Shown: piece after piece, positions 7,178-52,994 of the stretch
Position numbering within the stretch: the stretch's first letter is position 1
How the letters are laid out: the number at the start of each line of letters is the position of its first letter
Assembly (NCBI GenBank): GCA_965197745.1
Contig: CBDANS010000006.1
Coordinates: 576,001 to 640,000, forward strand
Reading direction: 5' to 3'
DNA: 64,000 nt
Source: Opitutales bacterium
GTDB lineage: Bacteria; Verrucomicrobiota; Verrucomicrobiia; Opitutales; PNEW01
Notes under the pieces: generated by a model
What the model was told of the DNA's origin: nothing
The model's database searches: none
The model's input: the letters and a program-made list of their open reading frames with translations, nothing else
Position numbers and translations under genes: made by a program

Positions 7178-7313
7178 GTAAACCTTCAAGTAAGCTACTC
7201 AAGGCAGAAAGGGGTAAAATGGCTAAGCTTTTCCATAATAGGTTACTGGTCGTGACCACGAAAACTGGTCCACTTGAAAAGTTAGTCTGGTCCAACTAGA
7301 AAGGACACAGACA

Positions 7314-7580
7314 ATGAAAGGCAAAAGATACACGACCGAAGAGAAAATACGGATGCTGCGCCAGGCGGACAAAGGGAAAACGATCCTGGAAGCATGCCGC
7401 GAGAACAACATAAGCGAACAGACCTTCCACCGCTGGAAACGTGAGTTTGGGATGATTGATGTCAACCAGGCCAAGCGGATGAAGGAGCTCGAGAAGGAGA
7501 ACGCGCGGTTAAAACGGATGCTGGCGGACAAGATGCTGGGGATAGAGATCCTGCAGGAGACCCTCGAAAAAAAACTGTAA
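7314..7580 (+). CDS. IS3 OrfA (HTH_Tnp_1)
   Basis: KRYTTEEKI..ISEQTFHRWKREFG..RMKELEKENARLK; ends in an A-run slippery site (gaaaaaaaactgtaa). Confidence 0.93.
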   Translation: MKGKRYTTEEKIRMLRQADKGKTILEACRENNISEQTFHRWKREFGMIDVNQAKRMKELEKENARLKRMLADKMLGIEILQETLEKKL

Positions 7581-8555
7581 GCCCTGGGCACAAGCGGCAA
7601 GTGGCAGAGAGACTTGTGACTCGGGGCCAGTGTTCGATGCGAGCGGGGTGCCGGTACTTTCGGCTGCACCGTTCCACCTATGCGTATAGGGCCAAGCATC
7701 CGGATGCCTGGCTAACGAAACTAAAAGCGGCAGTAAGGCGGTTATCACGGCAATACGCGAGGTGGGGCTATCCCAAGATCACGAAGCTGTTGAAGGACGA
7801 AGGCTGGCAGGTGGGTAAACGTCTCGTGCAACGTCTGCGACGTGAACTGGGTCTGGCGATCCCCCCACGCAAGCCAAGACGCCGGCGCAGGGATGTCTGC
7901 ACCGGGCTACCGACAAAGGCCGAACATCCCGACCATGTTTGGACCTGGGATTTTATCCACGATAAGACGGTTCGCGGCGGCAGTCTAAAAATGCTGACCG
8001 TGCTCGATGAGTACACCCGCGAGTGCCGGGTGATCCATGTTGATCGCCATATCAATGCGGAAACGGTGCGCGGTATCATGCAAAAACTGCTCGACCGGCA
8101 TGGGCCGCCAAAATATATTCGTAGCGACAACGGTTCCGTTCCGAGGAGCGAAGCGACGACATGCAAAGCCATTCATTGAAAGCCAATTGAGAGCCTGGCT
8201 AACTGCGATGAAAATCAAAACCCTCTATATCGAACCAGCAAGCCCTTGGCAGAACGGATACATTGAATCGTTCCATGCCCGTTTTCGCGAGGAGTGTTTA
8301 AACCGTGAACAGTTATGGACTTTGACCGAAGCCCGCGTGGTCATCGAAGATTGGCGCTGGCTTTACAATCATGTCCGACCCCACCGCAGCCTCGGCAACA
8401 TCACTCCACGGCACTTCACTGAAAACCTCAATACCGAAGGCTCGGGCTCCATTCGGGCTACGCCCTCATTGCGCCCAAGCCTTGACTTCCTCTACCAACT
8501 TAACTTCAACATTAACCTCTCCAGACTAACTCTCCCTGTGGACCAGTTTGTGTAA
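7577..8555 (+). pseudogene. IS3 OrfB DDE transposase, frameshifted by a 31-nt insert at 8138-8168
   Basis: VWTWDF, LDEYTREC and RSDNGS lie in one frame; FIE..SPWQNGYIESFH..RPHRSLG continues in the +1 frame. Confidence 0.88.
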
Positions 8556-8563
8556 CCCGACCA

Positions 8564-15359: not shown

Positions 15360-15800
15360 TGGTTCAGCGCGATGTCGGTTATCTCCTTATTGTCATTGCG
15401 AGGCCACTAATATTAAATTAGCGGACGTGATTAGCCTCGTCCCGTTCCCCGGACGCGACGGAGCGCGTCCCTCCATTTTCTTCACCCTTAATATAGACAT
15501 TGTATCTCAAAAAAAGATCACCCTTCTGGAGGGCCACGCGTCGTCGTGGCCGTGGCGATCTAGAGCTATGTCGGCTTCTCCTCGGTACGATTGCTGATTG
15601 AATAAGAGAATGGCGGATGTCGGTTATCTCCATATTGTCATTGCGAGTCCTGCAACCGCAGAACGAAGCAATCCAGGGGATCGCCGGTTACGTGTTGATA
15701 TTCGCCTGGATTGCTTCGTCGCAACGCTCCTCGCAATGACATGTGAGAAAGCAGACTTTACCGCATACGCGCATTTCCGTGTATTCGCTTATCCCCTTTT
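15360..15800. repeat. Composite repeat block: REP palindromes, a full RPE-like palindrome (15636-15741) and an 8-mer tract
   Basis: GGACGCGACGGAGCGCGTCCCTCC (~15451), GGAGGGCCACGCGTCGTCGTGGCC (~15528), TGTCATTGCGAG...CTCGCAATGACA. Confidence 0.85.
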
Positions 15801-19619: not shown

Positions 19620-20436
19620 GTTGAAGGGCCACGCTATGCCTGTCATGCCGTAGTCCCGTGGTGGCGGGACGAACGAAGGCAGATCGTGGCCGTTTGTTAT
19701 TCGGTAATTATCGGAAAATACGCGGACGCGATCAGCCGTCGCCCGGTGGACTATGGCCGACAGGCATCGCGCGTCCCTCCATATTTTACATCCCCTCGTG
19801 CACGCTTCTACGCATTCACCCATAATCGCATTCACCCTTTCAACTTTCTTTCTATTGTCATTGCGAGGATCCTGCAACTGCAGGAGACGCGGCAATCCAG
19901 GCGAATGCCGGATACGTGTTGATATTCGCCTGGAATGTAAGATGTCAGGCTACTGCCCTCGGTAGCCACGTCGCAACGCTCCTCGCAATGACAGTTGAGA
20001 AAAAAGTCTATTTCTGCTTTACCGCTTACACACATTACCGCATATCCACATTCACCCTTACTCCCTTTTACCCATATCTACATTACCTGGAGGGCCATGC
20101 TCCGTCATGGCCGTTAGGTGTTCGGTAAATAACGAAAAATACACGGACGCGATCAGCCGTCGCCTCGAAGATGCGCGAGGACTATGGCCGACAGGCACTG
20201 CGCGTCCCTCCATATTTTACATCCCCCCGTGCACGCTTCTACGCGTTCACCCATTCACGCATAATCGCATTCACCCTTTCAACTTTCTTTCTATTGTCAT
20301 TGCGAGGATCCTGCAACTGCAGGAGACGCGGCTACCGAGCGCAGCGACATCTTCCATTCCAGGCGAATGCCGGTTACGTGTTGATATTCGCCTGGATTGC
20401 TTCGTCTCCCGCAGTTGCGGGATCCTCGCAATGACA
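19620..20436. repeat. Tandem composite repeat units (~420-440 bp period)
   Basis: 19700-19893 recurs at 20121-20332; RPE-like palindromes at 19856-19993 and 20295-20436; REP pairs at ~19622-19781 and ~20089-20212. Confidence 0.9.
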
Positions 20437-49439: not shown

Positions 49440-49468
49440 TGATTGGACCCCGTTTTTCGTACCAATTA

Positions 49469-50465
49469 TTAAGTGAGAGAGTTCCCGGGTATTAATGGTT
49501 TTAGGATTGATGTATATGAGAGATCTTGGCGAAGTGAGGGCGTAGCCCGAACGCGGCCAAGATCTGAAAGGAATGTGACAAACTCTTGTGGGCTTTTAAA
49601 GCCTAAACGACTGTGGGGATGATCATGGTTATAGGTCTGGCGCCATTGTTCGATTACAACTTGTGCTTCAGCCACGCTGAGCAACACTTCACGGTTCAAA
49701 CACTCATCGCGTAAGCGGTTGTGAAACGACTCGATGAAACCGTTTTGCCAGGGACTGCCCGGATCGATATATATCGCCTTGATCTTTTTGTCGGACAACG
49801 ACTGCTGCACTTGATGAGCAATGAATGGCTTCGCATGTCGTCGCTTCGCTCCTCGGAACACTGCCGTTGTCACTACGGATATAGCTGGGAGCTCCCTCCT
49901 TTTCAATGGCCTCGCTAAGCACAGAGAGGACATCCGATGAGGGGAGTTCACGAGCGACCCGGATATCCAGACATTCACGCGTATATGTCTTCGCTTCGCT
50001 TGAGTGTCGTCGCTTTCAGCTCCTCGGTACATCGATCAGAGTCATCATCTTTAATGGACCGCCATGGTCTGTGCGATCATGGACAAAGTCCCAGGACCAA
50101 AGGTGATTGCGACCGGTTGCTTTAGTAGGCGACCCCGTAGAGACCCCTTGACGGTGTCTACGCTTTTTAGGTGGCTTTACCTGCAACCCTTCTGAACGTC
50201 GTACCGCCTGAACAAACTTCCTGTTTGTTGTCCAGCCTTCCTTTACGAGCAAGGCACGGATGCGCCGGTAACCGTAGCAGGGATGTTCCCAGGACAGGGT
50301 TACAATCCGCTCGGCCAACCGCTGAGCTTTCTTACTGGCCTGCTTGGGCTGGTAGCTGAAAGTTGACCAACTGAGGCTGAGGTAGGAACAAGCCCTTCGC
50401 AACGAGCACAGCCCTCTCTCAGCCGCATCTTTTACTACTCGCTTCTTCTGCTTGGGGCTCACCAC
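49469..50465 (-). pseudogene. IS3 OrfB DDE transposase interrupted by inserts at 49989-50030 (42 nt, in-frame TGA) and 49829-49859 (31 nt, frameshift)
   Basis: WSWDF, LID|YTREC, RSDNGS|FIA, SPWQNGFIESF, PHSRLG. Confidence 0.88.
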
Positions 50466-50725
50466 TTTTTTGACAGCGTTTCCTCCATTACCTGATTCTT
50501 AAGCATTTGATCAGCGAGCATCTTCTTCAACTCGGTGTTTTCTTTTTCCAGCTCTTTAAATCGCTTCGCATCGGCTAGTTCCAAATTGCCATACTTTTTA
50601 CCCCAGCGATAGAAGGTCTGTTCACTCACGTTGTTGCCTCGGCAGATTTCCTCTACCGTTTTTCCGGTATCGGCTTGCCGCAGTATTGCGATGATCTGTT
50701 CTGTTGTGTATCTTTTTCTTTTCAT
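50459..50725 (-). CDS. IS3 OrfA
   Basis: KRYTTEQII..VSEQTFYRW..KELEKEN.ELKK. Confidence 0.93.
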   Translation of the reverse strand: MKRKRYTTEQIIAILRQADTGKTVEEICRGNNVSEQTFYRWGKKYGNLELADAKRFKELEKENTELKKMLADQMLKNQVMEETLSKKW

Positions 50726-50789
50726 GAGGTTATCTGTTTATCCCGATAACCTCTCTCTGTTAATGATACCATTTTTGGGGGTCACTCCA

Positions 50790-51421: not shown

Positions 51422-52994
51422 GAATGGCGTTAAGATAAGGGATAGAATGAGTGCAATAGATGCTTGTACAGGGACCGTTGGAGAGCTACCCTAACGAGCA
51501 TGCAAAAACAAAACTTAACTCGTTATTTTCCAGGATTTAATCAGGTCCTGTTCGGTCGTGCTCCCCGAACAGCCCTTGCACAGATGGAGGGTAAGCTGGT
51601 AGAAATACGGCGGTCAAGTCTTTCCGAGCTATCGGATATCTTCGGGCAGTGGGTGCCGCAAAAGTATTTACACCGGAAGCCTCGAGGGGCTAACAGCCGG
51701 CGGAGATTGTTCAGCCAAAACGTGACCTTCTGGGCATTTTTGTTCCAAGTGCTCTCACCACGGACTGCCTGCCGGGAAGTGGTGCGCAAGCTCCAGAGCT
51801 ATTGCAGCATGAAGGGGCTGAAGTTGGCTAAAGGAACGGCCTCGGCCTACTGTCAGGCGAGGCAACGGCTGTTGGTGCAAGACCTGCACGGGATCCATGA
51901 AGCGATCAGTGAAGAGGTGGCCGGGAGAGTGACCGACGATCAACGGTGGAAAGGTCACGAGGTAAAAGTGGTCGACGGTACGGGTATCGCCACCGCCGAT
52001 ACGCCGTGCTTGCAGAGGTGTTACCCACAGCCTTCGCAGCAACGAAGCGGCTGCGGCTTTCCGGTGATGAAGCTGGTGGGCTGTTTTTCTTTAGCCAGTG
52101 GGGCGCTTTTACACTGGATGGAGTCCTCACTAAGGCATCATGACAGTGTGCTGTTGCGGGGCATGATCGGATTTTTTCAAAAGGGTGATGTGGTCCTTGC
52201 CGACCGGGGATTTTGCTCTTACCTCAATATTGCCCTGCTTAAAGGCCGCGGTGCTGAAGCGGTCATGCGTTTGCATCAGCAACGAAGAAGCGACTTTCGT
52301 CAGGGCAGGTCCTTGGGTAGGTATGACCGGCTGATCATGTGGAAGAAGCCGCAAAATGTCTTCGGCTTCAGTCGCGAGCAGTGGCGGCAAATCCCTGATG
52401 AGATCCCCGTACGGCTGGTGAAGATTTTCATTTTCATCAAAGGTTTCCGCGCCCATAGCGTAGACCTCGTGACTACCTTGAGCGATCCTCACCAATACTC
52501 CCACCACGATCTCGGAGAATTATACTATCGGCGCTGGGCAGTGGAGCTTTACTTTCGCCACATCAAAACCACCATGGGGATGGAGATCCTGCGCTCTCGC
52601 TCGGTCGCTCTCGTGCGCAAAGAGATTGCGATGTTTGCCATCGCCTACAATCTCTCATCCGCGCTCTTTTGCAGCAAGCTGCCAGTGCCTTCCACCGCGA
52701 CCTCTCCCGGCTAAGCTTCAAGGGGGCTGTTGACACCCTCCGCCAATATCAAAGTGCGCTCGCGGCCACCCGGTTTAATCCCAGAGCCCAACGATCTGTC
52801 ATTGACGAGATGATACACCTCATTGCCCTCGAATCGGTCCCCCTACGTCCCTTCCGATACGAACCAAGAGTCCTCAAACGTAGACCTATACCTTTCCAAC
52901 GATTGACTCATCCACGAGCCATGATGACCGTCTCTGCTTCACGAAAAAACAAAGGCTTTTATCATCCTAAACCACCCTTATCTTAACGCCATTC
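51422..52994 (+). mobile_element. IS4-family insertion sequence (1573 bp) with 11-bp TSD
   Basis: Perfect 20-bp IR GAATGGCGTTAAGATAAGGG; TSD AGGCCTGACCC at 51411-51421 and 52995-53005. Confidence 0.96.
51464..52986 (+). pseudogene. IS4 transposase, frameshifted near 52655 by an extra TC
   Basis: VDGT, ADRGF, Y..RW.VE.YFR..K (YREK); aat ctc [tc] atc cgc restores AYNLIR. Confidence 0.88.

Follow-up and report, generated by a model that had tools for sequence, protein, structure and literature searches.

How can an insertion sequence (IS) multiply when the catalytic core of its transposase gene is interrupted by a segment with an in-frame stop codon? This question is raised by IS-B, an IS3-family element of 1350 bp in an Opitutales bacterium (49440..50789, minus strand; all positions without a contig name refer to the window, i.e. 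the whole stretch of 64,000 nt from contig CBDANS010000006.1 of assembly GCA_965197745.1 that was analysed). A segment of 42 nt (49989..50030, minus strand) lies within orfB of this element, carries an in-frame TGA and is present in 30 copies in the genome, which contains 23 full-length copies of IS-B. The segment is one copy of a real family of very small hairpin-bearing mobile modules. The transposase is most likely switched off by it, rather than the insert being skipped by the ribosome. The explanation favoured here, with a probability of roughly 55%, is a nano-element similar to repetitive extragenic palindromic (REP) sequences or small dispersed repeats (SDR) that was inserted at the DNA level and broke orfB, and whose copies persist by trans-mobilisation, copy-to-copy transfer and hitch-hiking.

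IS-B shows the features of the IS3 family, namely, an orfA with a helix-turn-helix, an orfB with an rve DDE core, a slip site, TG...CA ends and short target duplications. Its orfA (50725..50459, minus strand) matched HTH_Tnp_1 in Pfam, and orfB, which is split by two inserts into three pieces, matched HTH_21, rve and rve_3. A slippery heptamer A AAA AAG read from the sequence in the orfA/orfB overlap (50465..50471, minus strand) is presumably the ordinary -1 frameshift site of IS3 elements. On the minus strand, CTG ATC GAT is followed by GTACCGAGGAGCTGAAAGCGACGACACTCAAGCGAAGCGAAG (50030..49989) and then by ACA TAT ACG CGT GAA TGT. The 42-nt insert is in frame with orfB, and its codons 4, 5 and 11 are AGC, TGA and AGC, respectively. 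An earlier interpretation made from the letters alone (the sequence-only reading) had described exactly this arrangement, an AGC-TGA followed by AGC seven codons on. It had also stated that a second IS3-family element, IS-A (7247..8563, plus strand), is uninterrupted at this position, and the codons of IS-A indeed read CTC GAT GAG TAC ACC CGC GAG TGC (LDEYTREC).

IS-A, whose ends are like those of IS-B when compared by eye, has its own 31-nt insert elsewhere. It is found in 36 genome copies, 31 with the insert and 5 without, and its family member in the window (8138..8171, plus strand) is the variant ...ATGCAAAGCCA. The corresponding site 2 of IS-B (49826..49859, minus strand) holds 34 nt (GTTCC...GCCA) in place of the GAA/GAG codon of DNGS-E-F. 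This adds net 31 nt, shifts the frame by +1 and lies 170 nt downstream of the 42-nt insert. The proposed likeness between the 42-nt and the 31-nt inserts was confirmed in the shared start GTWCCGAGGAGC, the middle AAGCGACGACA and the end GCRAAG-MCA. Two insert-free IS-A copies (G000:C4:136859-138300 and G000:C7:1901266-1902700, G000 being the genome of the window) have GAGCTCTTTGAAGG in orfA instead of GAGCTC-GAGAAGG, and their DDE-core frame is open over 415 aa.

The codon that was present before the insertion could be read from insert-free IS-B relatives in the same genome, in which all eight empty sites have GAT GAA TAT. The original codon was therefore GAA, which settles the choice between GAA, GTA and ACA and places the insert at a Glu position as suggested. 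It was replaced by 45 nt at 50030..49986 (net +42). In an equivalent description, a 43-nt block (50029..49987, TACC...GAC) stands for the middle A of GAA. The same junction rule was found at all five sites known from IS-B copies: X-A-A becomes X-[T...C]-A, one A being swapped for a block of 28-43 nt. These blocks start with T[AT]C[CA].GAG and end with C, and the target is ^AA(T/A/G). The predicted G^AAT-like target thus holds only loosely, as G^AAT, G^AGT, C^AAA, A^AAT and the T-loop sequence TTCG^AATCC were all seen. The insert itself does not qualify as a miniature inverted-repeat transposable element (MITE): its ends, T[AT]CCGAG and ...(A/C)C, form no inverted repeat, and its junctions show the loss of one A and no target duplication. 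In IS-A, the empty allele TCC GAG TTT and the filled allele TCC G[...]A TTC differ at a flanking base too. Filled and empty alleles are not interconverted by plain insertion or plain deletion, since the block takes the place of one A.

An alignment of ten IS-B-like copies defined four sites in orfB, and a fifth lies in orfA. Site 1 (LID-E-YT, orfB, net +42) was empty in 8 and filled in 13 copies, or filled in 30 when counted by the strict motif described below. Site 2 (DNGS-E-F, orfB, net +31) was empty in 5 and filled in 34 copies with IS-B-type flanks. For site 3 (PW-Q-NGF, orfB, net +42 with an open frame) 50 empty and 12 filled copies were counted, for site 4 (RD-E-CLN, orfB, net +35) 29 and 13, and for site 5 (KE-N-TE, orfA, net +27 with an in-frame TGA) 39 and 2. 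The last was found in G002, a relative from another genus, and in two copies of this genome. The blocks at the five sites are related but different, and presence and absence form a mosaic among the copies.

The family is recognised by the start T[AT]CCGAG, a small hairpin with a GNA loop and the end CGAC(G)ACA. Its strict motif CCGAGGAGC-N(0-8)-AAGCGACGACA occurred three times in the window and not once in 100 shuffles. In the 4.45-Mb genome, 100 matches were obtained (30 of the 42-nt type and 70 of the 31-nt type), all of them in IS3 transposase genes, and the reversed control gave none. The sequence-only reading would have fallen had no other occurrences with conserved ends existed, which is clearly not the case. 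Across the order, 25 of the 401 Opitutales genomes scanned contained the motif, which thereby spans 18 of 133 genera (control 0). Outside the taxonomic family of the window organism, there are 1-6 copies per genome, usually of 55-65 nt and of the form TTCCGAGGAGCGAAGCGACGACA-(A/T)GACCGG-hairpin-ACCGGACCA. In other Opitutales genera, copies often lie beside tRNA genes.

Among the matches listed in a wider scan of contigs, most were due to chance in GC-rich genomes, and only those from Opitutales, Puniceicoccaceae, Coraliomargarita and Pelagicoccus were used. The core CCGAGGAGCG(A/C)AGCGACGACA was also present in unrelated phyla, in Woeseia (loci L059, L060 and L084) and in Spirochaetes (L073 and L108). 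The spirochaete copies occupy a hairpin loop, the hairpin being made by the flanks (GATTCTTG...CAAGAATC). Given this core in unrelated phyla, the module may be far more widespread. No Rfam family matched the insert, apart from two hits at chance level. At 42 nt and with no match to a ribozyme covariance model, it is not a group I or group II intron. It resembles SDRs in being shorter than 100 nt, in its conserved ends and variable hairpin, in its presence/absence and in its nesting in repeats. The literature that was searched contained no account of inserts of this kind within transposase genes of IS3 elements.

Members of the family are not confined to transposase genes. The genome contains a 106-bp MITE with the ends TGTCATTGCGAGG, each end having a GC^AATCC site that is either filled or empty. 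Among 174 MITE ends genome-wide, 51 were filled, 80 were empty and 43 remained unclassified. The 46 blocks that could be parsed represent 33 distinct sequences of the form TACCGAG + hairpin + CGACATCTTCC. Their hairpins fall into classes of 5, 9-10 and 16 nt, and the stems differ yet remain complementary (e.g. TCCCGC-AATT-GCGGGA, GGC-AGA-GCC and GC-GCA-GC). Within the window, one member (TACCGAGCGCAGCGACATCTTCC; 20333..20355, plus strand) is nested at GC^AATCC in one end of the MITE at 20295-20436. Another (TACCGAG-GGCAGTAGCC-TGACATCTTAC; 19937..19964, minus strand) occupies one end of the MITE at 19856-19993, and a neighbouring MITE (15636-15741) is empty at both ends. The MITE junction departs, by a single T, from the rule that one A is replaced.

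The third kind of target is the T-loop (TTCG^A-ATCC) in partial copies of tRNA 3' parts, which follow tRNA-Asn and tRNA-Gln at a distance of about 90 nt on the downstream side. These copies reach from the T-stem to CCA and are present once or twice at each locus (G000:C6:355392-355720 and G000:C5:236387-236620). Their T-loops are expanded by ATGAGAAYC... plus a family member. Comparable tandem units stand beside tRNA-Ser, tRNA-Met and tRNA-Leu genes of other Opitutales (L053, L054, L056, L112 and L118).

The presence or absence of the insert has changed recently. Four of the five empty IS-A copies are identical to filled copies over 1277 aligned columns. In G002, IS-B forms a burst of at least 36 copies with 100% identity over 1345 nt, and each of them (e.g. 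L162:711-2055) has an insert in orfA and the 42-nt insert, both in frame and with TGA, and an empty site 2. One G002 copy (L176) lacks only the orfA insert. Two others (L192 and L193) lack only the 42-nt insert, read GAT GAA TAT and have an orfB frame of 346 aa, and L194 has a short form of 28 nt flanked by intact G^AATAT. As otherwise identical IS copies differ by the insert alone, gain or loss was recent and took place at the DNA level. Two IS-B subfamilies of 9 and 14 copies showed no differences in the insert (0/45) and 32/155 in the flanks (P ~3e-5), which implies an insert that is tightly constrained or else much younger than the subfamily split. Target duplications of 4 bp were present in 6 of the 23 IS-B copies, including copies of subfamily 1 (the nine near-identical ones) with both inserts, and, by eye, in 5 of 20 G002 copies. 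The insert-bearing copies did transpose.

On these sequence comparisons, repeated and independent insertion is supported, as the sequence-only reading had argued: the five sites have different blocks, the copies are mosaic, identical copies differ by the insert, and members occur in MITEs and tRNA fragments and also beyond this genome, in 24 further Opitutales. Local duplication of IS sequence, which the same reading had named as the finding that would speak against it, was rejected as the general origin. Such a duplication could be suspected in IS-A, where the empty allele reads GG TTCCGAG and the first 7 nt of the insert repeat the target. Still, the same 5' module occurs at non-homologous sites and within MITEs and tRNA fragments, and 24 other genomes carry it too. 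A single ancient accident with vertical inheritance and no mobility of its own would agree with the position of all 30 copies of the 42-nt type at one site of one IS lineage. It is extremely improbable and already contradicted by the different blocks at five sites, by the related blocks in MITEs and tRNA fragments, by identical IS copies differing by the insert alone and by the absence of insert differences against ~20% divergence of the flanks.

The same alleles could be explained by a reversible DNA switch, that is, a module that excises as well as inserts, with most IS copies turned off and rare precise loss restoring the transposase. L192 and L193, with a perfect GAT GAA TAT in copies otherwise identical to 36 filled ones, are what such a switch would leave behind, and L194 resembles an incomplete removal. 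The nearest diverged empty G002 copy examined (L197) differs 8 nt upstream, so that conversion from L197 would need a very short tract. In addition, the 42-nt insert is common to all three of the family's genomes, which makes the filled state look ancestral in them, and in the youngest IS-A clade empty copies are nested among filled ones, the sister and outgroup clades being filled. A plain deletion of the block, however, cannot regenerate GAA or AAT, as one A is missing, and the IS-A alleles also differ at the flanking base (TTT and TTC). Recombination between copies could yield the same mosaics, no excision enzyme is known, and an IS-B copy empty at all sites was not found. The switch is thus considered unlikely.

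For the insert-bearing copy, it is proposed that ordinary translation cannot give transposase, because the in-frame TGA truncates OrfAB. An alternative genetic code or stop suppression was rejected, as the three stops are used at normal rates in long open reading frames (ORFs; TAA 1195, TGA 825 and TAG 437) and no suppressor or selenocysteine tRNA was present among the 44 tRNAs found in the genome. A tRNA-His was found neither by ARAGORN (44 tRNAs) nor with Rfam RF00005 (44 matches over the cut-off), perhaps due to a gap in the assembly, which is 92% complete.

The arrangement of AGC, TGA and AGC had been likened in the sequence-only reading to take-off, stop and landing in T4 gene 60. When compared with the defining features of this bypass given in bioRxiv 10.1101/2022.08.31.505936, the analogy held for two out of six testable features. 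The codons of take-off and landing are read by the same tRNA (AGC codons 4 and 11, with AGT at landing in one variant copy), and a stop follows directly 3' of take-off. A take-off stem-loop is lacking: only GCU-GAA-AGC with 3 bp is possible, and it is absent from the minimum-energy fold of the RNA. No mini-Shine-Dalgarno (SD) sequence (GAG, GGA or AGG) is located 5-7 nt before landing, the 9 nt upstream of the landing AGC being CGACACUCA; the SD-like GAGGAG sits just 5' of the take-off codon instead. The gap, UGAAAGCGACGACACUCA, is GC-rich rather than AU-rich, and an out-of-frame AGC triplet lies 5 nt past the take-off codon, where landing would lead to the wrong frame (read by hand). Finally, the protein is not restored, as a hop gives LID-VPRS/EAKT-YTREC (the slash marks the hop) and not LID-E-YTREC. 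Both AGC codons belong to a repeated hairpin-stem motif (GAGC... and AAGC...).

The sister inserts of 31, 35 and 27 nt, inspected by hand, followed no common rule for take-off and landing (site 2 has GCG to GCG, site 4 has GAT to GAC and site 5 has no pair), and no classical +1 or -1 slippery sites were seen by eye within the 31- and 35-nt inserts. A mobile recoding cassette, acting by an AGC-to-AGC hop or leaky read-through of TGA, with frameshifts at the sister inserts and IS copies that remain autonomous at low transposase levels, is therefore regarded as quite unlikely. Besides the matched AGC codons with the TGA right after the first and the SD-like GAGGAG just 5' of it, several observations favour it. 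AGG is the rarest Arg codon (4.6 per 1000), the G002 burst element has only in-frame inserts with TGA (27 and 42 nt, one in a TGA-C context), three genomes yielded no fully intact IS-B, and at every frameshifting insert the required frames are open through the insert (read by hand). On the other hand, four of the six gene-60 features are wanting, the sister inserts share neither a take-off/landing rule nor slippery sequences, and 7 extra residues after a hop or 14 after read-through would fall into a strand of the catalytic core. Standard stop usage, the lack of a suppressor tRNA and a plain TAG in orfB of subfamily 2 also argue against recoding. This in-frame TAG (TCG TTT TAG AGG) is shared by the 14 copies of subfamily 2, which are ~90% identical to the IS-B of the window; subfamily 1 has TTG CGA. 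The TAG (e.g. G000:C7:770802-772152, alignment column ~390) occurs in several older copies as well, yet the subfamily was amplified.

At the RNA level, two contigs from RNA libraries, X18 (725 nt) and X19 (238 nt), are continuous across the insert; they stem from two runs of one study. In a single comparison, no RNA joint skipping the insert was found in those read and contig data. Joints that skip sites 1 and 2 do occur in run X4, whose kind is unknown, and they correspond to empty alleles present in the DNA. The RNA fold of the insert region was worse than 200 out of 200 shuffles (z +2.07), and its DNA fold reached -1.1 kcal/mol. The sister insert and both DNA strands also folded worse than shuffles (z +1.2 to +1.9). 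According to PMC13037366, nearest-neighbour rules may undervalue GNA mini-hairpins.

Removal at the RNA level, by an intron-like excision from the transposase mRNA and, elsewhere, from tRNA-like RNA, would fit sites in the most conserved motifs, as known for introns and inteins, the members in T-loops of tRNA-like sequences and inserts far more conserved than their flanks. It is very unlikely, as the RNA-library contigs of two runs retain the insert and no skipping RNA joint, Rfam match or stable fold was obtained. Furthermore, taking out the shared T...C block leaves the frame shifted at every site, and the copies in tRNA context belong to partial duplicates beside an intact tRNA and not to the working gene. 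Generally, 28-43 nt are far below the size of self-splicing introns.

Insertion at the DNA level with loss of the transposase frame thus remains the preferred explanation, and its course can be outlined as follows. The 42-nt segment would be a possibly composite copy of a very small non-coding module with the 5' tag T[AT]CCGAG, a short hairpin (here the GNA-loop mini-hairpins GC-GAA-GC and GCT-GAA-AGC) and the 3' tag CGAC(G)ACA... The module would enter DNA site-specifically at ^AA(T), in a single orientation and with no target duplication, one A being replaced in the T-loop fragments as well as at each of the five sites of IS-B. At site 1, the insertion would have struck the GAA codon of LID-E-YTREC in the rve catalytic core and brought the in-frame TGA with it. 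Persistence may then have three sources: the intact IS ends could be moved by transposase that is supplied by related IS3 elements or by the rarer copies with no insert or with fewer interruptions, the insert could spread from copy to copy through recombination between IS copies, and it could hitch-hike on IS bursts. We infer trans-mobilisation and copy-to-copy transfer from this pattern, and the abundance of the insert would be due mostly to IS amplification plus transfer between copies. Possible helpers are two IS-A copies in this genome with an intact orfA and an orfB frame of 354 aa, two G002 IS-B copies with a 346-aa orfB, and IS-A-like frames of 412-492 aa in G002.

Several observations weigh against this explanation. 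The RNA evidence is weak, as it consists of assembled contigs from one study, which can hide rare forms and may include DNA. The orfB segments between and after the inserts gave omega values of 0.125-0.19 between subfamilies, compared to 1-5 in the wrong frames; this purifying selection on all orfB segments speaks for a working protein, but it may pre-date the insertions. The family's three genomes (G000, G001 and G002) yielded no IS-B copy that is fully intact, and the sole G002 IS-B copy that is empty at both sites is a degenerate fragment. Yet insert-bearing lineages were amplified in each of these genomes: 9 copies here are ~99.7% identical, and G002 has at least 36 that are 100% identical. 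IS3 transposases are generally held to act preferentially in cis, and these amplified lineages would thus be better explained if such copies were somehow functional. Four of the five sites lie within the most conserved catalytic motifs, a pattern typical of introns and inteins, which get removed. The direction of change, gain or loss, is not fixed by the alleles since no simple event interconverts them, and no enzyme has been tied to the family.

Concerning a possible mover, the only candidate single-strand transposase found in the genome is a single-copy Y1_Tnp (HUH) ORF of 199 aa with HYH and Y motifs (G000:C6:163380-163706, minus strand). The flanking ~1 kb to each side contains no member of the family, and the gene is only a candidate for this role. 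A retro-mechanism was rejected, as the 92%-complete genome gave no RVT_1 match, and so were integron attC and IS91-type targets, whose junction sequences do not fit. In the immediate neighbourhood of IS-B, a 416-aa ORF (51464-52714, plus strand) looks like another transposase (DDE, IS4-like by eye).

A further, tentative and rather doubtful possibility is that the family is a hyperparasite of transposons, a homing nano-element that recognises ^AAT in T-loop-like DNA, is copied into new IS3 copies shortly after their transposition and disables their transposase. If true, this would account for the mostly filled copies and the few empty ones identical to filled ones, for the identity of the insert across diverged IS lineages and for the hits in motifs common to IS3 elements. 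It would then act, in effect, as a naturally occurring gene drive directed at insertion sequences.

Very little is understood about mobile DNA units of 30-40 nt, including how they move. Here, such a family was caught in the act, with identical IS copies differing by the insert, a clear junction signature, a fixed orientation and three kinds of targets, namely, transposase codons, MITE ends and T-loop fragments of tRNAs. The mechanism has become testable with oligonucleotides and one candidate HUH enzyme. The family is also relevant to the question of what limits the expansion of IS elements in host-associated bacteria, given that most IS3 copies in three related genomes are ORF-broken and multiplied nonetheless. 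In annotation, such copies will be called split or pseudo transposase genes, the cause being a defined element.

Among known systems, mitochondrial byps of Magnusiomyces are relatives of the bypass cassette of T4 gene 60. They are mentioned in bioRxiv 10.1101/2022.08.31.505936, and the cassette, as presented there, resembles the insert in being short, located at an invariant enzyme residue and itself mobile, with matched codons at its start and inside and a stop right after the first. In contrast to it, the insert has neither the take-off stem-loop nor the mini-SD, its gap is GC-rich with a premature landing triplet, the protein is not restored and the sister inserts lack matched pairs. Homing introns and inteins likewise occupy the most conserved motifs, spread between diverged host genes and coexist as alleles with and without the element. 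The insert differs from these as it is far too small, contains no ribozyme or ORF and shows no sign of removal from RNA or protein.

The SDRs of heterocyst-forming cyanobacteria, reportedly described by Elhai and colleagues in 2008, are closer. They, too, are reported to be tens of nucleotides long with conserved ends around a variable hairpin, to make no target duplication, to move by an unknown mechanism and to be nested in other repeats and in otherwise conserved sequences. Unlike them, the present family belongs to a different phylum (Verrucomicrobiota, Opitutales) and has a different sequence; its targets include codons in the catalytic motifs of IS3 transposase genes as well as the T-loops of tRNA fragments, and it replaces one A and breaks frames.

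Opitutus terrae, which we take to be a member of the same order as the window organism, leads to a second relative. In Di Nocera et al. 2013 (PMC3733652), which deals with REP elements, intragenic REPs and Rickettsia palindromic elements (RPEs), this species is the one with the most numerous intragenic GTAG REPs. As described there, REPs are similar to the family in their units of 20-40 nt, their unpaired tag beside a stem-loop and their partly intragenic location. Their proposed mover is an HUH/Y1 transposase, the REP-associated tyrosine transposase (RAYT), and the present genome likewise has one Y1_Tnp gene. Set against that source, the family tag is T[AT]CCGAG and not GTAG or CGTC, and instead of palindromic stems of 5-13 bp, MITE-borne members have stems of 3-6 bp and IS-borne ones mini-hairpins of 2-3 bp that fold worse than shuffles. 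The Y1 gene is not flanked by family members as a RAYT gene would be, and whereas intragenic REPs and RPEs are in frame and translated, members of this family carry stops or shift the frame. The family is thus set apart from known small repeats by its tag, its A-replacement signature, its targets and its frame breaking, and its nearest known counterparts are the cyanobacterial SDRs and the REPs including the intragenic ones.

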